Assembly: GCA_028700905.1 (NCBI GenBank)
Contig: JAQVRT010000014.1
Coordinates: 1-14,441 of the forward strand
Length of the DNA: 14,441 bases
Direction of reading: 5' to 3'
Source: Candidatus Iainarchaeum sp.
GTDB taxonomy: Archaea; Iainarchaeota; Iainarchaeia; Iainarchaeales; CSSED10-239
A model generated the notes under the pieces. The model was given only the letters and a program-made list of their open reading frames with translations, was not told the origin of the DNA and made no database searches. Below are positions 1-13,554 of the stretch, piece by piece. Made by a program: the position numbers and the translations under genes. Every line of letters starts with the position of its first letter. Position 1 is the first letter of the stretch.

Positions 1-502
1 CAGTTCTCCAATCATAAACATCATATGAAATATCTAAAGCATCATAAGAATTGTGTTTATAAAATTCACTTACACTTATACCTTCACCAGATAAATAATT
101 ATTTGAATTATAAACATCATCATAAACTGATGCAGTTAAACCTGCATCAGGAGAAAGATCTGGAAATTTAACTAATAAAACAGGGATACTGTAATTACCG
201 GTTGTAGGGGAAGTTCCTATTTTATTATCTAAAGTAGTGGTTTCAAAATCTCTTACAGAAAGGTTTGAAGAATAATTTAAACCTAAACTTGCAGGAGTTT
301 CTCCTGGAGGAAGACAAATACTTCCTGAACAATAACTTGAAAGAATTGGTGGAATTTCAAAGACAGGAGGTTTGGATTTTGTAACTGATTTTATTACTGC
401 AATATTTTCTGCACTAGAAGAAGCTTCCTTAGAATAAACTAAAGGAAGAAGTAAAAAAGTTAAGAAAATTATTATAACTACTAAAAATATTCTTTTATCC
501 AT
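1..502 (-). CDS. Secreted protein, N-terminal part only (gene continues beyond the left edge); possible M6/InhA-like metalloprotease N-terminal domain
   Basis: ATG at 502..500 opens a minus-strand frame that stays open to position 1. It is missing from the ORF track because it is partial. My translation starts MDKRIFLVVIIIFLTFLLLPLVYSKEASS, a Sec-type signal peptide. Later comes ...GNYSIPVLLVKFPDLSPDAGL...GISVSEFYKHNSYDALDISYDVYDW, which resembles the start of M6 (immune inhibitor A-like) protease domains as I remember them. The catalytic HEXXH region would lie outside the window. Confidence 0.5.
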   Translation of the reverse strand, partial: MDKRIFLVVIIIFLTFLLLPLVYSKEASSSAENIAVIKSVTKSKPPVFEIPPILSSYCSGSICLPPGETPASLGLNYSSNLSVRDFETTTLDNKIGTSPTTGNYSIPVLLVKFPDLSPDAGLTASVYDDVYNSNNYLSGEGISVSEFYKHNSYDALDISYDVYDWRT

Positions 503-527
503 ATATATTTATTGATTTAACTTATAT

Positions 528-551
528 AAAAAGTTAACTTATTAACTTTTT
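528..551 (-). terminator. Hairpin with flanking T-run between the pilin-like gene and the downstream secreted-protein gene
   Basis: AAAAAGTTAA-CTTA-TTAACTTTTT forms a perfect 10-bp inverted repeat with a 4-nt loop, 10 nt after the stop of the 561..1604 gene. A TATA-like TTTATATAAG (minus strand, 521-530) for the downstream gene follows directly. Confidence 0.4.
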
Positions 552-560
552 AAAATAACT

Positions 561-1604
561 TTAATTTAAACCTAATGAAAAACAAACTTCTCCATTTGAA
601 TTTGTAACACATACTGGTTCTAAATCATAGTATTCAGATAAATCTGGATGACTTACATAAAATGTAGCATCTCCTTCTGAAGAACTATCTGATGCTGAAA
701 ATCTATTAAGACAAAGATTTATAGAACCATTAGAATTTGTTTGTTCACTACAAAGTGCATATTCTGGTGGAGATTGTACAGGAAGAGTAAATTCTAATAT
801 TTTTTCATCAGAAATACCAGAATCAGTATTTTGATCTACCCCTGTAAAATAAAAATTAAAAACTCCTTCTTGATTACAAGAAATATTACTTGCAAGTTCT
901 TCTTCTGGATTAAGACTTGAGAAAGTATGTATGAATAATCCTTCTGCTGTTGCAGGAACTTGAGTTCCATCGTAACTACATGCATCTGATAACATCATAG
1001 AACCTAAAGAATTTTGTGTACTTACAACTAAACTAACATCAACTAATTGTTCTTGAGTTGTATTAAAATCTATACTTAAAGTTGTTGGATAAGGTTGATT
1101 TACATTTGCACTTGCAGTTGGAAATGGAGTTAAATCTAAAAAGAATGCATTTGGAAGTGAATTTCCATATTCACAAGAAGAATAATCTACTTCACAAGAA
1201 AAACAATCATAACCATCAGCATCACCTATTAAAAAATAACCAAATGGAACTTGACTTATACAATCACTATAACCTGGACCTAAAACAATAGAACCATTAA
1301 CCCATTCACATTCCTCGCCAGTATTTAAAACATTATCTCCACAAACACCACCTGGTATTGGGTCAGGATCATCATTACCAGCTCCTCCATCACCATTGTG
1401 ATCTCCATCTCCACCACCTACAGAAATACCACCATCATCTCCAGGGAAATAATTAGATAGATCTACTTCTGGTATGTCTTGAGTATTATCTATTTTTTTA
1501 TTAATATTAGATAAATAAAATGTTGCAAAAACAACACTACCTAAAACTATAACACCTATAATAATTATTGCTTCTAAAGAAACCTGTCCTTTATCTCTAA
1601 TCAT
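561..1604 (-). CDS. Archaeal type IV pilin-like surface protein with class III signal peptide, Gly/Asp-rich linker and cysteine-rich repeat
   Basis: The N-terminus MIRDKG|QVSLEAIIIIGVIVLGSVVF matches the archaeal prepilin peptidase site: basic residue, then Gly, then Gln at +1, Glu at +5 and a hydrophobic helix. The next segment is GDDGGISVGGGDGDHNGDGGAGNDDPDPIPGG. After it, CGDNVLNTGEECEW resembles the CGDGxxxxGEEC cysteine-rich repeat seen in Myxococcus-type repeat proteins. A GGTGG RBS lies 7 nt upstream of the ATG. Confidence 0.7.
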   Translation of the reverse strand: MIRDKGQVSLEAIIIIGVIVLGSVVFATFYLSNINKKIDNTQDIPEVDLSNYFPGDDGGISVGGGDGDHNGDGGAGNDDPDPIPGGVCGDNVLNTGEECEWVNGSIVLGPGYSDCISQVPFGYFLIGDADGYDCFSCEVDYSSCEYGNSLPNAFFLDLTPFPTASANVNQPYPTTLSIDFNTTQEQLVDVSLVVSTQNSLGSMMLSDACSYDGTQVPATAEGLFIHTFSSLNPEEELASNISCNQEGVFNFYFTGVDQNTDSGISDEKILEFTLPVQSPPEYALCSEQTNSNGSINLCLNRFSASDSSSEGDATFYVSHPDLSEYYDLEPVCVTNSNGEVCFSLGLN

Positions 1605-1655
1605 AAATCTTCCACCTAAATCATTAAAATATATTATTATTTGTAAACGGAAATA

Positions 1656-1668
1656 TTTATAAACTATT
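1656..1668 (-). promoter_or_regulatory. BRE/TATA-like promoter element (AATAGTTTATAAA on the minus strand) for the pilin-like gene
   Basis: The minus strand reads gcAATAGTTTATAAATATTT about 55 nt upstream of the ATG at 1604, leaving room for a roughly 28-nt leader that contains the GGTGG RBS. The same AATAG-n-TTTATAAA arrangement occurs at 7685-7698 and 10486-10499. Confidence 0.5.
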
Positions 1669-1676
1669 GCAAAAAG

Positions 1677-2291
1677 TCATTTTTTAATATACGGACGTCT
1701 TGGTTTCTTTTGGGACTTATCCAAAATTTTATTTTTTGATTTGGATTTAAGAAAATTAATTATTTGTTTAATTAAAACAGACTTAACACCTTTTTCTGTA
1801 GCGTTTAATAATTCTAATTTTGAGTTAGAATTATTTTTAATTATTAAATTAGCATACTTTTTAACTTCATCTACTCCCATTATTTTTGATCTAAAAAAAT
1901 CACTTTTTGCGACATTGTTAATAGCTTCTTTTTTAGATTTATAATTAGATCTTAATTTTATTCGGTTTATTCTATATGTTTTATTAGAGTGGGTATAAAT
2001 TATATGAAAATCAGAAATAAACTTTTTGAGAAAAAAAATTTCATCTTTACTTAAAATACCTTCAATTATAATATTTTTGCTAACCTTTAATTCATTTATA
2101 ATATAAGGCATGGTTAATTCTAACACTTTTGTTTTTCGTTCAGCATAATAAACACTAGATTTATTTTTATGTTCAGGAATAGAATTTAATACACCCCTTA
2201 TTTCTATTAATTTAAATCCATTATCCATTAAATAATTGCCAACTATAGTCTTTCCAACCCCATTCTTACCAACAATTACAAATACAGTCAT
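1677..2291 (-). CDS. P-loop NTPase, nucleoside/nucleotide-kinase-like, with a basic C-terminal tail
   Basis: A Walker A motif sits at the extreme N-terminus (VIVGKNGVGKT). The size of about 200 aa and the layout are typical of small NMP-kinase or dephospho-CoA-kinase-like proteins. The ATG overlaps the upstream stop as ATGA. The substrate cannot be inferred. Confidence 0.5.
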   Translation of the reverse strand: MTVFVIVGKNGVGKTIVGNYLMDNGFKLIEIRGVLNSIPEHKNKSSVYYAERKTKVLELTMPYIINELKVSKNIIIEGILSKDEIFFLKKFISDFHIIYTHSNKTYRINRIKLRSNYKSKKEAINNVAKSDFFRSKIMGVDEVKKYANLIIKNNSNSKLELLNATEKGVKSVLIKQIINFLKSKSKNKILDKSQKKPRRPYIKK

Positions 2292-2782
2292 AATAATCTA
2301 TTTAATATATTTAACAACAATAAAATTCTAATCATAAATGAGCCATCACCACTAATATTTAGAGTGAGTTGCTCATCAAAATAATTTTTTAAAATTAAGT
2401 TTAATCTGGCTGCCAAATTATTTAAAAATAATTGCTCATCAAAATTTGCCTTAGAATTAGATATATTTTTTTGAAATTTATTTATAGAACATAGTGAAAA
2501 TAAATAATATTGAATTTGCCTCAAAACCTGATAAATATCTTTTTTTGAATTACAAACAAAAAAAAGATTATTTTTTAAAAAAATATAATTAATAATAAAC
2601 AAATCATGAGGGTCTAAAAAAATTAGTTTAATATCCTCGATAGAAAAATTATTTTTATCTAACACACTATTAATTTCGGCGACATTAATTGGATTTACAT
2701 TTAAAAAAACAATAAATTGTTGACCCTCATAATAAAATTGGTGCCAAGAAAGTGAGCAAAAATTATTTTTTATAATGACCAC
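2288..2782 (-). CDS. Hypothetical protein (orphan ORF inside the operon, GTG start)
   Basis: A 164-codon open frame with no ATG start. The start is GTG at 2782..2780, inside a GGTGGTC string. Its stop overlaps the next start as ATGA, which supports real translation. It has an internal repeat, NFDEQLFLNNL / YFDEQLTLNI. I recognise no domain. Confidence 0.35.
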   Translation of the reverse strand: MVIIKNNFCSLSWHQFYYEGQQFIVFLNVNPINVAEINSVLDKNNFSIEDIKLIFLDPHDLFIINYIFLKNNLFFVCNSKKDIYQVLRQIQYYLFSLCSINKFQKNISNSKANFDEQLFLNNLAARLNLILKNYFDEQLTLNISGDGSFMIRILLLLNILNRLL

Positions 2783-3632
2783 CTTTTTTTTTAAATGTAA
2801 TAAAATAGTTTTTAGAATAATAAATCTTTTTTTTTAAACCTGGTTTTGTAGAAGGAATGTCTTTCCAATAATTAAAACCAAACCATTTTAATAAAAACAA
2901 ATAATAAACATAAATTTTTGCAATTAAATCTAAAAAATAATTATATATTTTAATCAATCTAATTTTAAATGGAAATCCACTAATTAAATAACGCCCTAAT
3001 AATGTCCTCGCATGCTGATTAACCCGATCTTTAAAAGTACTTGGTAAAAAATAAAAATAATATGCAAAAAAACAAGGAATAAAATCAAATTTATACTTAG
3101 AATAAATCCAACGATCTTCATTAATTTTTGAAATATTTTTAAAAATTATTTTATTAAAAAAAACAGATTTAAACAAGATAAATGCGCCATGAGGTTTTAT
3201 TTTAAAAACAGTGGATTCAAACTCTATTTTTAATATATTTTGTTTTTCTAAAAGAGAAGGATGCTTAGAAATATAAGTTATGGGCAAGGCGCTTGCAGAA
3301 GTGTAATTATAATTAGAATTATTTAAAGTAGCCACTAAATTATAAATACATTTATCTGATAGAAAAAGATCAGAATCAGAAAACAAATAAAATTTATAAC
3401 GCAAATTTAATGACTGAACATATTTAAAAACATATAATTTTCCAATATCACAACTAACAAAATTATGCACAATTACACCTTTAAATGAATTGCAATCGAT
3501 AGGCTTATTAGAATGAATTATAATATGTATATTAAACAACACACCTTTTTGTTTATTTAATTCTGAAACAATATGAGGAATATACTTTAAATCAGATTCT
3601 CTTACACAAACAAAAACACCTAAATTAACCAT
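2763..3632 (-). CDS. Putative GT-A (family 2-like) glycosyltransferase
   Basis: An N-terminal beta-strand start (LGVFVCVRES) is followed by a DxD-like FLFSDSDLFL and a later NEDRW (ED motif), in the order expected for GT2 enzymes. The sequence is very divergent and low in complexity. Confidence 0.45.
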   Translation of the reverse strand: MVNLGVFVCVRESDLKYIPHIVSELNKQKGVLFNIHIIIHSNKPIDCNSFKGVIVHNFVSCDIGKLYVFKYVQSLNLRYKFYLFSDSDLFLSDKCIYNLVATLNNSNYNYTSASALPITYISKHPSLLEKQNILKIEFESTVFKIKPHGAFILFKSVFFNKIIFKNISKINEDRWIYSKYKFDFIPCFFAYYFYFLPSTFKDRVNQHARTLLGRYLISGFPFKIRLIKIYNYFLDLIAKIYVYYLFLLKWFGFNYWKDIPSTKPGLKKKIYYSKNYFITFKKKGGHYKK

Positions 3633-4632
3633 TATTAATCACATTTAAAAAAAAAGCAATATTTTTACTTAAATCAAACTTAGTCCTTGATAGCAAATAA
3701 ACTTTTAAAGACTTTCTTTGTATATCTGCAAAATCTAAAAAAGGTAATTCATTAGGAAAAATAATATTACTCTCAAATAAATCAATTGCAACAAAATTAG
3801 AGGGCAAAACCACTGGAACACAACCATAAAATCCGCCTTCTACCAATGAATTAGAAAAAGTTTCTAAATAGCCTAATGAAAAATTTAGAATAGCTTTTTT
3901 ATAATAAGGAATTATTCTTTCAAAAGATGGTGCTTGCTTATAAAACAATTTATTACTAATATTATGAGAATTAATTTTTTTATTATCTGTAAAATAATAA
4001 CATTTGTTTAAATATAATAAAAATTTATTTATTTTATTATTATTTTTATATTTTTTAAGTCTAGTCGCGAATATTCCATTCATTTGTTTTTTATCCCAAG
4101 CATAATTATCAGAAATTAATCCAATCGGAGTAATAATGTATTTAGCAGTAGTTTTAAAAAAACAATTAGCCAACATTTTATGAGAACTACAACTAACATG
4201 TAAAAAATCTATTTTTAAAAAGTTAATTTTTTTAAAAAAAATAGATTCTATTTTTAGTTTTTTTTGACAACTACGATCTAATTTAAATCTATAGTGTTCA
4301 ATATCAGGAATAGAAGCAATTAATTTAAAATTTTTATTTTTTAACAAAACAGGGTCTAATGATAAAATATGCCTATAATCTATAAAGTAAACAAAATCAA
4401 CAGGATTATTTTTCAGAAAGTTATTTAATTCTAAATGCAAATCACTCACTTCTGAAAAATTCATTATTAATTTATCATCATAATAAAAAGGGTTGTTAAA
4501 ATATAAATTAAAAACAATTACATCATAAGAACTATATTTATACAAGCCAACTAAAAATCTATATGCTCGATTTTGAACTCCCCCTACAGAATCTCTTGAA
4601 AGATCATAAACAACAATTACAAATTTACTCAT
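3625..4632 (-). CDS. Putative GT-B (family 4-like) glycosyltransferase
   Basis: The N-terminal FVIVVYDLSRDSVGGVQN resembles the GT4 GGv..h motif. The C-terminal LETFSNSLVEGGFYGCVPVV fits the GT4 E-x7-E signature followed by G.P.V. Confidence 0.55.
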   Translation of the reverse strand: MSKFVIVVYDLSRDSVGGVQNRAYRFLVGLYKYSSYDVIVFNLYFNNPFYYDDKLIMNFSEVSDLHLELNNFLKNNPVDFVYFIDYRHILSLDPVLLKNKNFKLIASIPDIEHYRFKLDRSCQKKLKIESIFFKKINFLKIDFLHVSCSSHKMLANCFFKTTAKYIITPIGLISDNYAWDKKQMNGIFATRLKKYKNNNKINKFLLYLNKCYYFTDNKKINSHNISNKLFYKQAPSFERIIPYYKKAILNFSLGYLETFSNSLVEGGFYGCVPVVLPSNFVAIDLFESNIIFPNELPFLDFADIQRKSLKVYLLSRTKFDLSKNIAFFLNVINNG

Positions 4633-5773
4633 AAACTATACCGTGTTTTTTAAGAAAAACATCTAGAACAAATTTTAATCCATTAGATGTAACATAGTTA
4701 GGTACCTCAGAAGGATTAAGCCAAAGAAAACTATTGTGTTCTTCTGAAAGAACTACTTGAGATGTATTACAGAAAACCGAAAAGAATTCTGTTTTAGTTT
4801 TTCTATAAACATAATTAGATTTCTTGAAATAATGATTAATTTCAAATAATTTATCTAAATCTATTTTGACATCAGTAATACCCACTTCCTCAGCAATTTC
4901 TCTTTTAATTGTTAATGAAGGATCATCAAATTCGCCCTTTTCAACACCTCCTTTGGGATATGCCCACCAACCTCCACCTCCAAAGGAATGTTCTATTACT
5001 AAGACTTTTTTATGTTCTAAATTATATAATATACCTCCTCTTGCAAGGCCAACTAATACATTTAATTGTTTAATATCTTCAAATAATTTTTCAAAATTAA
5101 ACTCATTATAAATACTGTATATTTTTGAAAAAATCGAAAGCAACGATTCAGTTGTATTTTTATCAACATTTTCTTTAACTTTAAAACTATTTTCTAATTT
5201 AAAATCAAAATTAACCCCGAATAAATTTAAAATTCGATAAAAATCATAAATTACATCTGACATCTTATATTTATCTGAAATAAAATAAGCATCATAAAAA
5301 TTTTGTTTTAAAACATAAAAAGTGGTTTGAAGTTCATAAAAAAAATCTTCTTTTGATTTATTTTTTAACATTTCGACAAACTTATATTCAATTCTTTCTC
5401 CAAAAATACAAAAACTATTTATGGTTAAATCAAATAAATAAGGTACAAACAAATCTTCAGAAATGATTTTTGAACTTAACTCATCTAAATTATGTATTCT
5501 AAAAACCATAGGAATATCATATTTTTGCCTAATAGTTGAATTTAATTCATTAATTAAAAGTAAATTTTCATTAGATATCTTTTCTTTATTCACAAAAAAC
5601 ATTACATCTAAATCACTTAAACCAGGTATAATTTCATCTCTCGCAAAAGAACCATAAATATAAACCGAATGAATGAAATCAATGTTTTTAGAAGTTAACA
5701 AGTCCTGAAGATCTTTAACCATATAATAATAATTACTAATATCTTTATTTAAAATTGTTTTCAAAAAAATCAC
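4625..5773 (-). CDS. Fusion protein: Pol-beta-superfamily nucleotidyltransferase (AadA/ANT-like N-terminus) plus C-terminal Nudix hydrolase
   Basis: VYIYGSFARDEIIPGLSDLDVMFFV is the GS...(S)DxD minimal nucleotidyltransferase motif, with spacing like aminoglycoside adenylyltransferases. The C-terminal GGVEKGEFDDPSLTIKREIAEEVGI is a Nudix box (G-x5-E ... REUxEExGU) with a slightly long spacer. The start is uncertain: the track start at 5773 is GTG, an in-frame TTG at 5764 sits 6 nt after GGTGA, and an in-frame ATG lies at 5722. Confidence 0.7.
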   Translation of the reverse strand: MIFLKTILNKDISNYYYMVKDLQDLLTSKNIDFIHSVYIYGSFARDEIIPGLSDLDVMFFVNKEKISNENLLLINELNSTIRQKYDIPMVFRIHNLDELSSKIISEDLFVPYLFDLTINSFCIFGERIEYKFVEMLKNKSKEDFFYELQTTFYVLKQNFYDAYFISDKYKMSDVIYDFYRILNLFGVNFDFKLENSFKVKENVDKNTTESLLSIFSKIYSIYNEFNFEKLFEDIKQLNVLVGLARGGILYNLEHKKVLVIEHSFGGGGWWAYPKGGVEKGEFDDPSLTIKREIAEEVGITDVKIDLDKLFEINHYFKKSNYVYRKTKTEFFSVFCNTSQVVLSEEHNSFLWLNPSEVPNYVTSNGLKFVLDVFLKKHGIVYE

Positions 5774-6602
5774 CTTTATTTATTTTTTTATTCAAGTATA
5801 AATAGAATTGATCAAAAGTGTTAAACATAACAGATGATGATGCAATTTTATTTGCAAATTTCAAAGATTTTTTAAGAGAAGCTTTTTTTAGATAATATCC
5901 AACAAAAGAATATAAAAAAACATCTCCGGCTCCAACAGATGACTTTTCAATCACATCATAACCCGAATCAGAAAAAAATAAAACATTATTTTTTAAAATG
6001 TCAGCACCATTGCAACCTTTTGTTAATAAGATATAATCCATATTTTCTAAAATATTTTTATCTAAACCAAAATATTCTTTATCAGATAATTTAAAAAACA
6101 CTTTTACAAAATATTTTTTAGACAGAGCAATAATTTGTTTTAATAATAGTAATTCTTGTTTTTTAAAACCACCATCATCATTATTAAAAAGATCTAAAAA
6201 AATAAACTTAGGTTTTTGAGAAAATATTTTTTTAAAAAATAAAATATTAAATTCATTTATTATTGGAGATACAATAATTGTTGCATTAGTTAAATTTAAA
6301 TTTAGATTAGAGCTAATTCTAAATGGTTTTGAATTTAATTTTACAACACGATTATTTTTAAATTGTTTTAAATTAAAACAAACTGTTTCTGGAACATAAT
6401 TAGGAATAATGTGCTTTAATAAAATTATATTTTCATAAAAGTCTTTTTTAGATATATTTGAAATATTAATAAAATTTAAATTGAAATTATTGCTAAGTAG
6501 ATGCAATATTGAACCGCCATAATTTGGAGGCCCTCCTAAAAAAACATTGTTATTTATCAAATCAATAGAAACACTAGAAAATGAAAAAATATTATTTTTC
6601 AT
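5745..6602 (-). CDS. PfkB/ribokinase-family carbohydrate kinase
   Basis: The N-terminal LGGPPNYGGS (GG..N motif) and the C-terminal SSVGAGDVFLYSF (GAGD anion-hole motif) appear in the canonical order. The length of 285 aa fits the family. The ATG at 6602 overlaps the upstream gene by 11 nt. Confidence 0.75.
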   Translation of the reverse strand: MKNNIFSFSSVSIDLINNNVFLGGPPNYGGSILHLLSNNFNLNFINISNISKKDFYENIILLKHIIPNYVPETVCFNLKQFKNNRVVKLNSKPFRISSNLNLNLTNATIIVSPIINEFNILFFKKIFSQKPKFIFLDLFNNDDGGFKKQELLLLKQIIALSKKYFVKVFFKLSDKEYFGLDKNILENMDYILLTKGCNGADILKNNVLFFSDSGYDVIEKSSVGAGDVFLYSFVGYYLKKASLKKSLKFANKIASSSVMFNTFDQFYLYLNKKINKGDFFENNFK

Positions 6603-7659
6603 AAATCCACTTTTTCAATTTTTTAAAAACAAAATCATCTGTATATTGCTCATTATTTGTTTTAAAACCGTAATTATTAATAATAGGCACAGTCCCTACT
6701 AAATTACGATCTTTTGCAATTTTTGCTAATCTAATTATATCTATAATAACGCCAGCACTATTAGGAGAATCAGTAACAGATAATTTTAATTCAATATCAA
6801 TTGGCTGCCCACCAAAACCCAATCCACGTAAATTGATATAGGCAATTTTATTATCGTTTAAATAATGAATATATTCTGCAGGGCCAGCATATAAGTTATT
6901 TAATTTATAATCATATTGACTGTTTACACTATTAATTTTACTTTCCCATTTTAATTTTAATCTTTCTTTATTCATCATATTCAGAAAGTCTGTATTTCCA
7001 CCAATATTCAATTGATAAGTGTTTTTTAATAAACACCCACGTTCTAAGAACAAATTAACTAATACTCGATGAATTATGGTTGCGCCTATTTGAGATTTTA
7101 CATCATCTCCAAAAACCAATAATTTTGCAGACTTAAATTTATCTATCCATTTTTTATCAGATGCAATAAAAACAGGCATCGCATTTATAAAACCAACATT
7201 TGCTTTAATAGCAGCATCAGCATAGAACTTAACTGCATCAGACGATCCTACGGGCAAGTAACAAATAACAAAATCTGGCTTAGTTTTTTTAAAAAGATTA
7301 ATAATATCTACAGGTTCTTTTGTTGAAGGAATTACTTTTTTATCTAAAGAATTATCAATTACATGACCTGATAAGCCATCTAATATAGGCCCCATTTGAA
7401 CAATTACTTTTTCTTTTATATCTTTACAAAAAATAGTAGTACAATTAGGCCTAGAAAATATAGCTTTAGATATTGGTTTTCCGACTTTTCTTTGATCAAC
7501 ATCAATTGCACATACAACATCTATATCTTTAATAGAATAACCTTTTAAATTTGGGTGTAATAAACCTATAAAATCCTTTTTTAAATAATAATTAAGGCCC
7601 TGTACTAAACTACTTGCGCAATTACCTACACCTATAATACCTATTTTTATTTTAGACAT
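6592..7659 (-). CDS. ino1: Inositol-3-phosphate (myo-inositol-1-phosphate) synthase, short prokaryotic type
   Basis: IGIIGVGNCASSLVQGLNYY is the characteristic N-terminal Rossmann motif of bacterial and archaeal MIPS. FGDDVKSQIGATIIHRVL and LNIGGNTDFLNM match the conserved catalytic-core motifs. The length is 355 aa. Confidence 0.9.
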   Translation of the reverse strand: MSKIKIGIIGVGNCASSLVQGLNYYLKKDFIGLLHPNLKGYSIKDIDVVCAIDVDQRKVGKPISKAIFSRPNCTTIFCKDIKEKVIVQMGPILDGLSGHVIDNSLDKKVIPSTKEPVDIINLFKKTKPDFVICYLPVGSSDAVKFYADAAIKANVGFINAMPVFIASDKKWIDKFKSAKLLVFGDDVKSQIGATIIHRVLVNLFLERGCLLKNTYQLNIGGNTDFLNMMNKERLKLKWESKINSVNSQYDYKLNNLYAGPAEYIHYLNDNKIAYINLRGLGFGGQPIDIELKLSVTDSPNSAGVIIDIIRLAKIAKDRNLVGTVPIINNYGFKTNNEQYTDDFVFKKLKKWIYEK

Positions 7660-7684
7660 AATATTAAATTATTATATAAAAATA

Positions 7685-7698
7685 TTTATAAAACTATT
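7685..7698 (-). promoter_or_regulatory. BRE/TATA-like promoter of the inositol operon (AATAGTTTTATAAA on the minus strand)
   Basis: The TATA box lies 26-33 nt upstream of the ino1 ATG at 7659, which implies a leaderless or near-leaderless transcript. The motif is shared with 1656-1668 and 10486-10499. Confidence 0.5.
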
Positions 7699-7715
7699 TA
7701 GTTTGGAATTTCACA

Positions 7716-7739
7716 ACATATGATAAATAAATCATATGT
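7716..7739. promoter_or_regulatory. Perfect 9-bp inverted repeat (ACATATGAT-N6-ATCATATGT), candidate transcription-factor operator
   Basis: A perfect palindrome in the divergent ino1/dsbA-like intergenic region. It ends 1 nt before a second TTTATAAA box (7741-7748) and sits about 20 nt upstream of the ino1 TATA box. Confidence 0.4.
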
Positions 7740-7832
7740 CTTTATAAACATTTACAACCAATATATATTTTGAAAACAAAAAAATCACCTTATACCAACA
7801 CCTCAAAAAATGTTTTTAAAAAGAAAAACTAA

Positions 7833-7925: not shown

Positions 7926-8576
7926 ATGACAAAAAAAGAAAACAATTTAATGTATATTAAAATTCTTTTAGGAGCTATCTTAGCAGTTTTAGTTTTATTA
8001 TTAGTATTAAATCTATCAAACAATAATAAAACAACAGATGCTTTTTTAAAAGAAACAACAAGTAAAACAGATAACCAAGCAAATCATTTTTTAGGAAATG
8101 AAGATGCACCTTTAGTAATGTATGAATATTCTTCTTTTACATGTCCTTTTTGTAAAAGATATCAAATAGATGATCAAACTTTTGAAACTATTAAAAAAGA
8201 ATATATAGATACAGGAAAAATAAAATATGTTTATCAACACTTTGTAAGAAATGAAGTTGATATTAAAGCTGCAAATGCTGCTGAATGTGCAGGAGAACAA
8301 GATATGTTCTTTGAATATAAAAAGAAACTTTATGAAAATCAAACAGATTTACCAAAAGAAGAATTTTCAAAGTATGCACAAGAACTTGATTTAGATGTTA
8401 CAGCTTTTGAAAGTTGTCTTGCAGAAAACAAATATATAAACAAAATTACACAAGATAAACAAGATGGTGTTAATAAAGGAATTAGTGGAACACCAGGATT
8501 TATTGTTGGAAACCAAAGAATATCTGGTGCTCAAGACTATCAAGTCTTTAAAGCAGCAATAGATGAACAACTATGA
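7926..8576 (+). CDS. Membrane-anchored DsbA/BdbD-like thiol-disulfide oxidoreductase (thioredoxin fold)
   Basis: An N-terminal TM helix (ILLGAILAVLVLLLVL) is followed by the CPFC active site in YSSFTCPFCKRY. Later motifs FVRNE...AANAAECA and GISGTPGFIVG (cis-Pro loop region) are typical of DsbA-family proteins. A strong GAGGAG RBS lies upstream of the ATG. Confidence 0.85.
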   Translation: MTKKENNLMYIKILLGAILAVLVLLLVLNLSNNNKTTDAFLKETTSKTDNQANHFLGNEDAPLVMYEYSSFTCPFCKRYQIDDQTFETIKKEYIDTGKIKYVYQHFVRNEVDIKAANAAECAGEQDMFFEYKKKLYENQTDLPKEEFSKYAQELDLDVTAFESCLAENKYINKITQDKQDGVNKGISGTPGFIVGNQRISGAQDYQVFKAAIDEQL

Positions 8577-8725
8577 ATCTAAATTTACATCTATTAAAAA
8601 TAATAGATGCTAATAAAACAAAGAAAGATAAATTAATTTTTATTCTTTCTTCTTTTTTTTATTTAACATCAATAATAATAGTAAATAAAGTATACATCAC
8701 TTATAAAAACATTATTTTTATTTGA
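8573..8725 (+). CDS. Small (50 aa) single-TM ORF translationally coupled to the dsbA-like gene; possibly the 5' part of a split gene
   Basis: Not in the ORF track. The ATG at 8573 overlaps the dsbA-like TGA as ATGA. My translation is MNLNLHLLKIIDANKTKKDKLIFILSSFFYLTSIIIVNKVYITYKNIIFI*. Its TGA (8723-8725) overlaps the TTG start of the next ORF. Confidence 0.4.
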   Translation: MNLNLHLLKIIDANKTKKDKLIFILSSFFYLTSIIIVNKVYITYKNIIFI

Positions 8726-9069
8726 AAAAAACTTTTTTTATAACATTTATTTTTATAAATATAATAATTGCTATTCTTTTTGGAATAATTATTAATTTAC
8801 TTAGAAAAAGAATAAAAGATTCAAAAGAGATAAGACAAAAAATAGGTCTTGCACCTGTTGGCGTTTTTTTAGGAATCTTAGGTGGTGCATGTCCAGGATG
8901 TGTAACTGGCTTATTACCTTTAATACTTAGTTTATTTGGAATAAGTTTTTCTTTATTATCATTACCATTTAATGGTTTAGAATTATTGTTACTTTCAATA
9001 ATATTAATGATGGTTTCTATTTATTATTTAACAAAAGAACAAAGAGTTTGTAAAGTAAATTACTTATAA
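8722..9069 (+). CDS. Small polytopic membrane protein with a membrane-embedded CPGC motif (TTG start, or continuation of the preceding ORF)
   Basis: Three predicted TM helices, the second carrying GILGGACPGCVTGLLPLIL. There is no in-frame ATG upstream. The only start candidate is TTG at 8722, just after a T5 run and before an A7 run. The frame opens only 15 nt upstream of that TTG. Confidence 0.5.
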   Translation: MKKTFFITFIFINIIIAILFGIIINLLRKRIKDSKEIRQKIGLAPVGVFLGILGGACPGCVTGLLPLILSLFGISFSLLSLPFNGLELLLLSIILMMVSIYYLTKEQRVCKVNYL

Positions 9070-9338
9070 ACATTGTCATGATGATCTACTCTTTCAAAAA
9101 GAATAAATTTTTCTTTTTTAAAAACTTTAAAAATAATTACAAAACTTTTTAAGACATGTACTCTTTTATATTCTTTTAAATCATATCTTAAATTTTTATA
9201 AAAATCAATAGTAATTTCATCTATAGAAATAATTTCATTTATTTTTTTAAAAACAGATTCATAAAGTAACTTGTCTTTCTTATAAATTATAGAAAGGTTA
9301 TTTTCAAATAAATTACTAAAAGAATAATTAAAAGACAT
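9060..9338 (-). CDS. relE: RelE/ParE-superfamily toxin (mRNA interferase-like)
   Basis: The protein is 92 aa. The C-terminal part YKRVHVLKSFVIIFKVFKKEKFILFERVDHHDNVYK follows the RelE pattern yR.R.g.yRiiy.v......i..v.hR..vY. It lies immediately downstream of a small partner ORF, with the partner's stop and this start adjacent. Confidence 0.7.
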   Translation of the reverse strand: MSFNYSFSNLFENNLSIIYKKDKLLYESVFKKINEIISIDEITIDFYKNLRYDLKEYKRVHVLKSFVIIFKVFKKEKFILFERVDHHDNVYK

Positions 9339-9602
9339 TTATTTTTCCTCTATAGATTTTCTAAGTTCAGAAATAGTTTTAGATTTAAAACCTTTTTTTT
9401 TAATATGATAATCACAAGATTTAATTACATCTTTTAAAACTTCTTCTTTTATTTCTCTATCAATAAATTCATCTCCAAACAATTCAACAAATTTATTTAA
9501 AGCATCTCCTTTATCACGTAATCCATATTTTTCTTTAATAACACCTAAAACTCTATTAGTATAAGGATTAATTTTTATATTTAAACCCACATATTTATCC
9601 AT
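9339..9602 (-). CDS. Putative cognate antitoxin (small DNA-binding-type protein)
   Basis: The protein is 87 aa and sits directly upstream of the RelE-like gene with no gap. INPYTNRVLGVIKEKYGLRDKGDALNKFV resembles a motif (YTNRvL..iK.KYGL.dK..Ain) that I recall from small archaeal proteins found next to RelE-like genes. An AGGTGA RBS lies 7 nt upstream of the ATG. Confidence 0.6.
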   Translation of the reverse strand: MDKYVGLNIKINPYTNRVLGVIKEKYGLRDKGDALNKFVELFGDEFIDREIKEEVLKDVIKSCDYHIKKKGFKSKTISELRKSIEEK

Positions 9603-9728
9603 ATAATTTCACCTAATATAATATAAGTTAAACTAATATAAAAAGATATCTAAATTAGAAATATTTTAAAAAAAATAGAAAAGAAAGATTAAATAATATT
9701 TAACCTTTTTTATATTAATAGACAAAAA

Positions 9729-12495: not shown

Positions 12496-12518
12496 AAAGG
12501 TTTATTAAATAAACCTTT
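12496..12518 (-). terminator. Intrinsic-terminator-like hairpin plus T-run after the 304-aa secreted-protein gene
   Basis: AAAGGTTTATT-A-AATAAACCTTT is a palindrome overlapping the stop at 12519..12517. On the minus strand it is followed by TCTTTCTTTTTTTTT. This separates the two cassette-driven genes into independent transcription units. Confidence 0.5.
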
Positions 12519-13416
12519 ATCTTATATTTTTAGAAAAATCTTCTACACTATCTTTTTTCAAAAAATCTTCTTTAGCCATAGATTCTTCTTTAGATAAATT
12601 AGATGAAGAAAATAATTTATTGTTATTATATTCAAATTGAACTACCCTTCGAGCTGAACTAGTGTGAAGTAATTCTACTAATTCAGGAGTACTTTTTTTA
12701 TAATCAGCATGAACAGACAAATAAGCAGTATAAGTTCCATTTTCAAGTTTATTAGGAAACAAACTATATAAATCTAAAGTATGCTCAAAAACACCTGCTT
12801 TTTGAGGGATGTCAATATAATTAGCAAAAAGAAATTCATTATTTGAATTATTAACACTTAAATATAATCTTAAAATAGGCATTGCCTCAGGGTACAACTC
12901 ACCCTTAAAAGTAATCTTATTTGTTAATGGATCTAAAGAAAACTCATAGTAATTAGCAACAACATATTCAGAATTATTTAAATTAAATGATCTATCGTAT
13001 TTAACCCCATTTTCCTTTTCATAGATGTATCTTACATACGGATTTTGTAAATTTTGCTGATTTGCATAAACAGCATTATGAGTACCCATAAATCTTTTGT
13101 CTCCATGTCTATATGTACGTGCGTTAGAATAAGAATGATATCCATTTACATTTGGATAAATAAAACCACTTATAAAACCATTGCTATTAGTATATGCATT
13201 AAATGAAGTACGGTATATATAATAACGTGAATTGTCATCTGAATAAAAAATAGTATCACTGGACAATGCAGCACTGAAGTTATTTTTTTCTGAAACAGTA
13301 GGTTTTATTGCAAAACCTTCTTTTGATAAACTTGGAAGTAAAAATATTACAGCCAACGATAATACAACTACAGCAATTAGTATATATACTGCAGTTAAAT
13401 TTTTTTTCTTTTTCAT
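12517..13416 (-). CDS. Secreted or membrane-anchored protein of unknown function (Tyr/Asn-rich)
   Basis: I place the start at the second ATG (13416..13414), preceded by the same GAGGT RBS. The track start is 13431. The N-terminus is MKKKKNLTAVYILIAVVVLSLAVIFLL. I recognise no domain in the remainder. Confidence 0.6.
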   Translation of the reverse strand: MKKKKNLTAVYILIAVVVLSLAVIFLLPSLSKEGFAIKPTVSEKNNFSAALSSDTIFYSDDNSRYYIYRTSFNAYTNSNGFISGFIYPNVNGYHSYSNARTYRHGDKRFMGTHNAVYANQQNLQNPYVRYIYEKENGVKYDRSFNLNNSEYVVANYYEFSLDPLTNKITFKGELYPEAMPILRLYLSVNNSNNEFLFANYIDIPQKAGVFEHTLDLYSLFPNKLENGTYTAYLSVHADYKKSTPELVELLHTSSARRVVQFEYNNNKLFSSSNLSKEESMAKEDFLKKDSVEDFSKNIR

Positions 13417-13500
13417 TTTTAAAAACCTCATTTTTATTTTTATAAAATATAATTAATAAAAGATATAGTTATAGAAAGCATTTATAAAATTAACTTATTA
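13400..13500 (-). repeat. Copy B of the duplicated promoter/RBS/first-codons cassette
   Basis: See copy A. The two copies are in direct orientation, 1019 nt apart. Confidence 0.85.
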
Positions 13501-13554
13501 GAAAAATAATTTTAAAGAAAACAAATAAAAACATAAACTTCTTTAATATTAAAT

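Follow-up and report, generated by a model that had tools for sequence, protein, structure and literature searches.

A seven-gene operon headed by inositol-3-phosphate synthase in Forterrea-like Iainarchaeota that may make an inositol-phosphate-derived glycoside

A minus-strand block of seven genes, headed by the inositol-3-phosphate synthase (MIPS) gene ino1, occupies positions 1677-7659 of a 14,441-nucleotide stretch of DNA from Candidatus Iainarchaeum sp. (the whole of contig JAQVRT010000014.1 of assembly GCA_028700905.1), referred to here as the window. The operon brings known folds together in an undescribed combination and matches no described pathway. As judged from sequence, its product is most likely, although unproven, a glycosylated and/or nucleotide-activated inositol-phosphate compound. 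The explanation favoured here, which is held tentatively, is that the operon makes an inositol-phosphate-derived glycoside in these Forterrea-like Iainarchaeota (DPANN). In the literature, nothing relevant was found on this gene combination or on MIPS in DPANN archaea or Diapherotrites.

The seven open reading frames (ORFs; g1 to g7, NCBI protein identifiers MDD4049759-65) were presented in a preliminary description of this DNA as end-overlapping genes on one strand, and recomputed ORFs reproduce the overlaps at all six junctions exactly (11, 29, 8, 8, 20 and 4 nt). We infer that the operon is co-transcribed and translationally coupled. The start codons of g3 and g6 are GTG; an alternative start of g3 at the TTG of codon 4 (NCBI, 379 aa) gives an overlap of 20 nt, and with a start at the ATG of codon 18 (JGI, 365 aa) the g2/g3 overlap is gone. 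All seven ORFs, the orphan g6 included, are real genes under purifying selection, because dN/dS against the orthologues in L015, a distant locus with the same operon, is 0.10-0.32 in every one of them. Neither tRNA genes nor Rfam elements were found in the window.

The identity of the first gene anchors the interpretation. By strong homology, g1 (6592-7659, minus strand, as are all genes of the operon; 355 aa) is shown to be a genuine MIPS/Ino1, predicted to cyclise glucose-6-phosphate to myo-inositol-3-phosphate. It matches the Pfam family Inos-1-P_synth (2e-28, 99 bits; cut-off 27) and is covered over its full length by TIGR03450 (1.8e-109), its 366 bits lying under the 638-bit cut-off of this mycothiol-specific equivalog. 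Ino1 of Mycobacterium tuberculosis (1GR0) aligns with residues 3-352 at an E-value of 8e-98, and the MIPS blocks GVGNCASSLVQG, SQxGATIxHRVL, NxGGNxDFLN and DSPNSAGVIID are aligned between the two proteins. The NAD-binding and catalytic blocks of MIPS, including the N-terminal GxGxxA, are thus recognizable in g1, and the earlier naming of this gene as ino1 is borne out by the Pfam match and by the full-length match to 1GR0. The protein is nearer to MIPS (1GR0, 331 bits) than to the Ari2-type synthase of five-membered cyclitol phosphates (6k96, 182 bits). It is also the most conserved product of the operon, with 66-92% identity among orthologues and a dN/dS of 0.10 against L015. As a separate observation, g1 matches the PHROG family phrog_33138, of unknown function, at an E-value of 3.6e-99; therefore, MIPS-like proteins are encoded by some viruses of prokaryotes.

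In the proposed scheme, g1 would form myo-inositol-3-phosphate from glucose-6-phosphate, and g2 would supply a phosphorylated precursor, either glucose-6-phosphate or inositol-3-phosphate made from scavenged myo-inositol. Sugars would be added to the inositol ring by g4 (GT-B/GT4-like) and g5 (GT-A/GT2-like), as MshA, PimA and PimB' do. The Pol-beta nucleotidyltransferase (NTase) half of g3 might nucleotidylate the inositol phosphate or its glycoside, or make an activated donor, and the Nudix half of the same protein might cleave the resulting diphosphate linkage in product release or proofreading. Further phosphoryl or other steps would fall to g7 and g6, and in one lineage, that of L030, an S-adenosylmethionine (SAM)-dependent methyltransferase would methylate the product. 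No transmembrane segment is predicted in any of the seven proteins, a hydrophobic stretch at the C-terminus of g5 peaking at a KD19 of 1.38, and the chemistry is therefore expected to be cytoplasmic or peripheral. Because all of the proteins are predicted to be soluble, a product that is itself soluble, for instance a compatible solute or a metabolite, is preferred here. The catalytic motifs on which the scheme relies are invariant across lineages: GAGD in g2, REx2EE of the Nudix domain in g3, E257/E265 in g4, D86/D88 in g5 and the Walker A motif in g7.

The second gene, g2 (5745-6602; 285 aa), adjoins g1 in every lineage and probably encodes a divergent, ATP-type kinase of the PfkB/ribokinase family. 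The earlier PfkB assignment is borderline in the window protein (25.6 bits where the Pfam gathering score is 25.8, the match being limited to the C-terminal 70 residues) but clear of the cut-off in its orthologues, and a profile of the g2 family matches ribokinase (5zwy) in the Protein Data Bank (PDB) at 1e-6. The motifs GGPxNYGG, TKGxNGA and GAGD (G224, G226, D227) are invariant across the family; an equally invariant S173-x-x-E176, placed by eye without a reference-kinase alignment, is a candidate for the NXXE Mg/phosphate motif. In the PfkB/ribokinase family, a small second residue of GXGD is found in ATP-dependent members and RXGRGD in the pyrophosphate-dependent type (PMC5931981). By these rules g2 appears to be of the ATP type, because GAGD has a small second residue and no RXGRGD motif is present. 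A pyrophosphate-dependent kinase was considered and ruled out, RXGRGD being absent. A self-contained kinase for precursor supply would make sense, because Ca. Forterrea has no upper glycolysis, lipid synthesis or nucleotide synthesis (PMC5905446).

The third gene, g3 (4625-5773), encodes the fusion of NTase and Nudix domains that had been read from its sequence, and both halves are recovered by profile searches. The N-terminal half (5054-5773, minus strand; approximately residues 1-240) passes both Pfam NTase cut-offs, NTP_transf_2 with 27.2 bits (cut-off 21) and Polbeta with 27.4 bits (cut-off 26.9), and its GS...DLD motif, YGSFARDEIIPGLSDLDVMFF, fits the pattern hG[GS]-x9-13-Dh[DE]h. This half includes a further region of about 130 aa, for which no database match was found. 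The C-terminal half (4625-5053, minus strand; approximately residues 241-382) matches Pfam NUDIX at 2.7e-11 (44 bits, cut-off 21), and its best PDB profile matches are Ap4A hydrolases (5cfi, 1.4e-10; 3i7u, 7e-9), with yeast DDP1 (1e-5) and Dcp2 as more distant ones. The Nudix box, GGVEKGEFDDPSLTIKREIAEEVGI, consists of G-x5-E and REIAEEVGI with a spacer of 9 residues instead of 7; R291, E292, E295 and E296 are invariant in the family, and a GGGGWW-x2-PKGG block is conserved. The domain is thus predicted to be of the Ap4A-hydrolase/DIPP-like kind. The fusion family is very small, with five clusters among 5.8 billion proteins, and every member lies in the same gene context. Among GTDB representative genomes no relative of the fusion was found, only an unrelated Roseibium NTase being matched; none was found in viral contigs, and a scan of JGI metagenomes for the fusion returned just one further fragment.

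Variation within this family bears on the role of the NTase. In lineage F (L008/L030), and there only, the fused NTase reads SN(L/I)N (SNLN/SNIN) and not SDLD, the catalytic Asp pair being changed to Asn. The L030 operon, the only lineage F contig that still has the downstream genes, also encodes an intact stand-alone NTase of 252 aa that is 41.5% identical to g3 residues 7-230. Because L030 combines a dead fused NTase with this intact paralogue, NTase activity appears to be needed by the pathway and to be separable from the Nudix domain. The only resemblance of the N-terminal half of g3 to a PDB entry is a faint one to kanamycin NTase (E=1.3). The layout of g3, in which about 130 aa come after the N-terminal NTase domain, is shared with the ANT(4')-type kanamycin NTase, and the length of this enzyme (256 aa in the 6p01 chain) is close to that of the L030 paralogue. 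The substrates of kanamycin and other aminoglycoside nucleotidyltransferases are glycosylated cyclitols. However, fusion to a Nudix domain is not a feature of the ANT enzymes.

Two divergent transferase-like proteins follow, g4 (3625-4632; 335 aa) and g5 (2763-3632; 289 aa). Both are orphans: the g4 family consists of four clusters among 5.8 billion proteins, and g5 has three relatives among 1.84 billion representatives. Their AlphaFold2 (AF2) models, built on alignments of 3-4 sequences, stayed at a pLDDT of 52-54 because the relatives are too few to deepen the alignments. The top Foldseek matches of the g4 model are PimB' (3oka, 5e-5) and MshA (3c48, 6.5e-4), at a TM of about 0.3. The invariant E257-x7-E265-GG-x-YG-x2-P of g4 is like the EX7E motif of GT4 enzymes with one extra residue, so that the G-x-P after E-x7-E is shifted by one position relative to WaaG, WaaB and WcaL; a loose GT4 motif expression matches three of five Escherichia coli GT4 enzymes and, owing to this extra residue, does not match g4. 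Taken with the model, g4 is probably a GT4-like glycosyltransferase of GT-B fold. For g5, 67 Foldseek matches were obtained at E<=1e-3 (best 6e-6), nearly all of them GT-A glycosyltransferases, including mimivirus R699, GtrB, ArnC, ColGalT1 and DPMS, with a few same-fold sugar-phosphate nucleotidyltransferases at about 2e-4. Because of these matches and an invariant DxD (D86, D88), the modelled N-terminal domain of g5 is clearly GT-A-like, suggesting a GT2-like enzyme.

The last two genes are g6 (2288-2782) and g7 (1677-2291). The 164-aa product of g6 is conserved, with the motif LRQxxYxLxSLCSxNxxQKNISN, and has orthologues in L015, L021, L028 and L030. It has no match in Pfam, NCBIfam or PADLOC models and no relatives were detected outside the operon family, in agreement with its earlier designation as an orphan; its dN/dS against L015 is 0.32. 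The 204-aa g7 product had been called a P-loop kinase and is predicted to be a P-loop protein resembling nucleoside monophosphate (NMP) kinases: it has an invariant Walker A motif (GKNGVGKT) and an Arg-rich LID-like segment, matches AAA_18 at 1.2e-5 (26.2 bits, cut-off 29.4) and PRK08356 at 1.2e-8, and finds SSO1041/UPF0200 and an AdkA-like protein in the PDB at 3e-4.

The neighbourhood of ino1, PfkB kinase, NTase-Nudix fusion and g4 is kept in at least six divergent lineages, as judged by protein-level identity to the window proteins, and its junctions are packed tightly in all of them, with overlaps or gaps of <=20 nt. L015 has all seven genes (70-92%) between the same DsbA and pilin-like flanks. 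L009 and L028, which come from one sample and share a 21-nt end overlap, jointly contain all seven (about 41-73%). In L006/L007 (about 40-70%) ino1, PfkB, the fusion, g4 and g5 are followed by the contig end; L021/L022 (about 41-68%) have ino1, PfkB, the fusion, g4, g6 and g7 without g5; and L010 (about 43-50%) shows PfkB, the fusion and g4. A nine-gene version, in L030 (about 36-71%), runs ino1-PfkB-fusion-g4-g5-NTase-methyltransferase-g6-g7, the stand-alone NTase (positions 4227-4985 of L030) and a class-I SAM methyltransferase of 237 aa (5018-5731) being placed between g5 and g6. Downstream genes have been lost from other variants of lineage F: everything from g4 on is missing in L008, and in L020 at least g4, g5 and the stand-alone NTase are missing. 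Wherever their upstream region is visible, both retain ino1-PfkB-Nudix. An ordinary O-antigen or S-layer cluster, the alternative origin named in the preliminary description, is not matched by any operon gene.

The nearest analogies are the actinobacterial systems in which Ino1 is paired with MshA for mycothiol, or with PimA/PimB' for phosphatidylinositol mannosides (PIMs). They appear to have in common with this operon the same short bacterial/archaeal type of MIPS (8e-98 to M. tuberculosis Ino1), feeding a soluble or peripheral GT-B enzyme, and in structural comparisons g4 comes closest to PimB' and MshA. However, g4 has no detectable sequence similarity to GT4/Glycos_transf_1, the operon is without MshB, MshC, MshD and a phosphatidylinositol (PI) synthase, and nothing in those systems corresponds to the PfkB kinase, the NTase-Nudix protein, the GT-A protein, g6 or the P-loop kinase. 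The routes to di-myo-inositol phosphate and archaetidylinositol also start from MIPS in archaea and include nucleotide activation. In contrast to them, the sole NTase of the window is of Pol-beta fold and forms a fusion with Nudix, and neither a GlmU-like cytidylyltransferase nor a CDP-alcohol phosphatidyltransferase is encoded in the window, as had been stated before. In HldE, a PfkB kinase and an NTase make ADP-heptose for glycosyltransferases, and kinase action followed by nucleotidylation is a plausible activation scheme for the present operon. However, the NTase of HldE belongs with the cytidylyltransferase-like HIGH-motif enzymes and is not of Pol-beta type, and HldE has neither a Nudix domain nor a MIPS. 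Inositol has no anomeric carbon, so that NDP-inositol would be no classical glycosyl donor.

Several results weigh against a glycoside as the product. The first concerns the specificity of g2. The myo-inositol kinases TK2285/MI3K of Thermococcus kodakarensis and TM0415 of Thermotoga maritima are inositol-linked enzymes belonging to the ribokinase family; g2 retains the small second residue in GXGD that is seen in ATP-dependent members. Nevertheless, g2 matches TK2285 (3w4s/4xf6) only at E=0.048, at the C-terminus and below many ribokinases, and TM0415 (1vk4) is not among the matches of the g2 profile; the resemblance to the Thermococcus enzyme, which the preliminary description had cited, is therefore not specific. 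The second concerns the transferases. For g4, no sequence match was found in Pfam, NCBIfam or PDB with four family members as queries and with full-length and C-terminal-half profiles, and hhalign against an alignment of E. coli GT4 enzymes (WaaG, WaaB, WcaL, WcaI, WcaC) gave a probability of 0.1%. Its model (pLDDT 51.6) is confident in the N-terminal half only, the C-terminal half falling below 50, and generic Rossmann proteins appear in its Foldseek list at E of about 2e-3. The GT4 label thus receives no support from any sequence method, and the low-confidence model is only weakly GT-B/GT4-like. For g5, the best Pfam match is Glyco_trans_2_3 at E=0.05 (13.8 bits, cut-off 27), which falls outside GT2 sequence membership; there is no NCBIfam and no PDB profile match, and hhalign against WcaA/WcaE gave a probability of 0.2%. 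Overall confidence in its model is low (pLDDT 53.7), residues 1-110 reaching about 59-83. The GT2 label of g5 is thus supported by no sequence method, but its model indicates a GT-A fold, and the DxD is invariant among its relatives.

The chemistry and the gene content add to these objections. Activation of polyol or sugar phosphates is not a known activity of Pol-beta NTases, and on paper the fusion of such an enzyme with a Nudix domain looks futile. No phosphatase, transporter or NDP-sugar synthesis gene is found among the operon genes. The core of ino1, PfkB and (dead NTase)-Nudix that occurs without g4 in L008/L020 may have a transferase-free function. The earlier proposal of an alternative inositol-phosphate route is thus supported in part: its operon and its conserved neighbourhood hold, whereas the GT4/GT2 identities, the specificity of the kinase and the product stay conjectural. 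A more novel form of this proposal would have a KNTase-like Pol-beta NTase, with Nudix as editor or release enzyme, replace the GlmU-like cytidylyltransferase, and two extremely divergent GT-B/GT-A proteins replace the CDP-alcohol phosphatidyltransferase; such a new mode of inositol-phosphate activation and transfer is considered quite unlikely.

The main rival to a soluble product is a membrane or surface glycoconjugate, for which there is a real though minor chance. The operon would then modify an inositol-phospholipid head group in a PIM- or GPI-like manner, for instance host-derived archaetidylinositol, or make a lipid-linked sugar donor for surface glycans that serve attachment to the host. 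PimB' and MshA, to which g4 is structurally nearest, are consistent with this, and among the structural neighbours of g5 are GtrB, ArnC and DPMS, which are polyprenyl-phosphate glycosyltransferases. The setting would also suit a surface function, since the operon lies between genes for DsbA and a pilin-like secreted protein, near M6 peptidases and an S-layer protein gene, and its presence in some genomes and absence from others fits the strain variability that is typical of surface traits. However, these fold matches of g4 and g5 are too weak to point to an acceptor, transmembrane helices are absent from all seven proteins (the C-terminal stretch of g5 included), and genes for a CDP-alcohol phosphatidyltransferase, a flippase or an oligosaccharyltransferase are missing from the operon. 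Moreover, Ca. Forterrea makes no lipids (PMC5905446).

A module centred on inositol phosphates, inositol pyrophosphates or nucleotides, and not on glycosylation, is judged improbable. MIPS would provide inositol-3-phosphate, the kinases would add phosphates, including a diphosphate, the Nudix domain would turn them over, and the NTase would produce or draw on dinucleoside polyphosphates or a nucleotidylated inositol as a signal or phosphate store. In favour of such a module, ino1-PfkB-Nudix is the only part found in every lineage and variant, including L008 and L020, in which g4-g7 are missing. DDP1, which is among the Nudix matches besides the Ap4A hydrolases, is a diphosphoinositol-polyphosphate phosphohydrolase; one of the two kinases is of the NMP-kinase type that phosphorylates phosphates; and the relatives of this organism have a nucleotide-centred lifestyle (PMC5905446). 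On the other hand, many other Nudix enzymes match at least as well as DDP1, homology to known inositol polyphosphate kinases is lacking, and most lineages retain g4 and the GT-A-like g5, whose acidic motifs are invariant. An island for defence or conflict that varies between strains, with a CD-NTase/MNT-like NTase and Nudix and ATPase partners acting against viruses or on the host and ino1 merely co-located, is highly improbable and was rejected in the absence of a PADLOC system match (at least two components of one system): its attractions are the presence/absence among near-identical genomes, a HicAB pair and a transposase nearby, several orphan proteins, and weak g3 matches to CBASS cyclase models and the PADLOC candidates PDC-S07 and PDC-S09, but PADLOC gave only generic g3 domain matches and one g7 match at E=0.017, no nuclease, TIR-domain or pore-protein effector is present, no relatives occur in viral contigs, and ino1 is both the most conserved gene and tied in by overlapping stop/start codons in every lineage.

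The operon is framed by a repeated promoter-like motif. Its strict form of 12-13 nt, TAGTTT(T)ATAAAT, has just two occurrences in the window, against 0.14 expected by chance. The upstream BRE/TATA-like copy, TAGTTTTATAAAT (7684-7696, minus strand, with wider similarity over about 7661-7699), lies about 25 nt before the ino1 ATG and is the presumed operon promoter; because of this short distance the transcript is probably near-leaderless. The downstream copy, TAGTTTATAAAT (1655-1666, minus strand, with wider similarity over about 1630-1668), lies just past the g7 stop codon and a T-run and would be the promoter of the next gene, which encodes the pilin-like protein (561-1604). The preliminary description had placed one promoter in front of ino1 and the next only after the last gene. 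This holds for the strict motif, once per block end, but weaker TATA-like strings number 25 in the window against 18 expected, which is no excess over chance. As such strings are too common in DNA this AT-rich (about 23% GC), internal promoters may exist within the block. The flanking motif was also considered as a generic promoter consensus of the organism and this was ruled out: in loci of 17-21 kb it is present only at the two operon borders, and once in operon-less loci. The portion from about 1700 to 6600 had further been described, by eye, as more AT-rich than the flanks. The GC fraction of the operon, 0.231 (0.20-0.24 in g2-g7, 0.27 in ino1), is below that of the left flank (0.294) but not that of the right flank (0.226), and a compositional island is ruled out, as operon and right-flank GC are equal.

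The source of the window is closely related to Ca. Forterrea multitransposorum (a Diapherotrite, DPANN): the flanks of the operon are 91-98% identical at the DNA level to the closed genome of that archaeon (CP045477, 839,632 bp). In the corresponding locus of Ca. Forterrea (L025), and in two further assemblies (L026, L027), the pilin-like gene adjoins DsbA, with none of the seven genes present. Alignments to L025 were obtained for window 1-1668 and for window 7661-7822, and they have L025 9822-9860 in common; the 6-kb operon is thus bounded by imperfect direct promoter repeats (window 1630-1668 and 7661-7699). The sole motif copy in L025 is a hybrid, with the upstream context of the ino1 promoter and the downstream context of the pilin promoter, and the junction falls inside ATAAATATTT. 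Two copies of the motif are found in every operon-bearing locus, even in distant L015, and one in every operon-less locus (L025-L027). Because one hybrid copy stands where the operon is absent, the simplest reading is an ancestral operon followed by a pop-out deletion through recombination between the two repeats. Alternatively, the operon may have been gained by insertion with duplication of the repeat.

A second form of loss is seen in a sister strain, which is 99.26% identical across the operon (loci L001, L011-L014 and L017 were compared) and whose alleles recur in five or more assemblies from JGI/ENA, among them a contig of 368 kb. Here ino1 carries Q216* (CAA>TAA, C>T at window 7014) and g5 a 1-bp deletion in codon 187 (window 3072) that causes a frameshift, whereas g2, g3, g4, g6 and g7 are intact. 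The exact absence of the operon from the closed Ca. Forterrea genome, the nearest complete one, with one repeat copy kept, and the two lesions of the sister strain are new findings. Since close relatives have deleted or inactivated it, the operon is accessory and clearly dispensable, and it is decaying in the sister strain. The suggestion that it is a key trait of a reduced-genome archaeon is tempered accordingly.

The 47 differences from the sister strain (46 substitutions and the deletion) are unevenly spread: 20 lie in the first 160 codons of g2 (window 6125-6590) and seven at the start of g6 (2726-2771), with none in g3 and g7. This clustering looks like recombination tracts. Forterrea populations are shaped by homologous recombination (PMC5905446). 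Synonymous divergence from L015 is 0.27-0.55 in the operon genes and 0.92 and 0.76 in the flanking DsbA and pilin-like genes, respectively; because the operon values are the lower, the operon may have been exchanged between lineages later than the flanks diverged.

Among the flanking genes, the product of window 561-1604 (minus strand) has an N-terminal hydrophobic segment (residues 5-34) and, as judged by eye, a type-IV-pilin-like signal (MIRDKGQVSLE...). On the other side, a DsbA-like thioredoxin (7926-8576, plus strand), which likewise starts with a hydrophobic segment, is followed by a 115-aa hydrophobic protein with a CPGC motif (8722-9069, plus strand), possibly a redox partner of DsbA. 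The stretch 9071-9641, with two small minus-strand ORFs (92 and 87 aa), lacks a counterpart in L025 and represents a second indel between the two relatives. The gene of a 304-aa secreted protein (12499-13513) is replaced in L025 by a DDE transposase gene (14047-15009); this protein and a 165-aa protein have the N-terminus MRFLKMK in common.

Forterrea-like DPANN archaea are reported to have almost no biosynthetic metabolism and to be without upper glycolysis and lipid, nucleotide and vitamin synthesis (PMC5905446). A MIPS-centred operon of seven to nine genes is one of the few anabolic investments of such cells and probably relates to stress protection or to the host interface. Three of its proteins (g3, g4 and g5) belong to families of only three to five clusters, so that solving their chemistry would annotate dark matter and could reveal a new NTase/Nudix mechanism for the activation of polyol phosphates. 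The clean repeat-mediated deletion and the pseudogenised alleles offer a natural comparison of cells with and without the operon in the same aquifer populations. If the quite unlikely new mode of inositol-phosphate activation and transfer is real, host-dependent DPANN archaea would make a new class of nucleotide-linked or glycosylated, and in one lineage methylated, inositol-phosphate compound.

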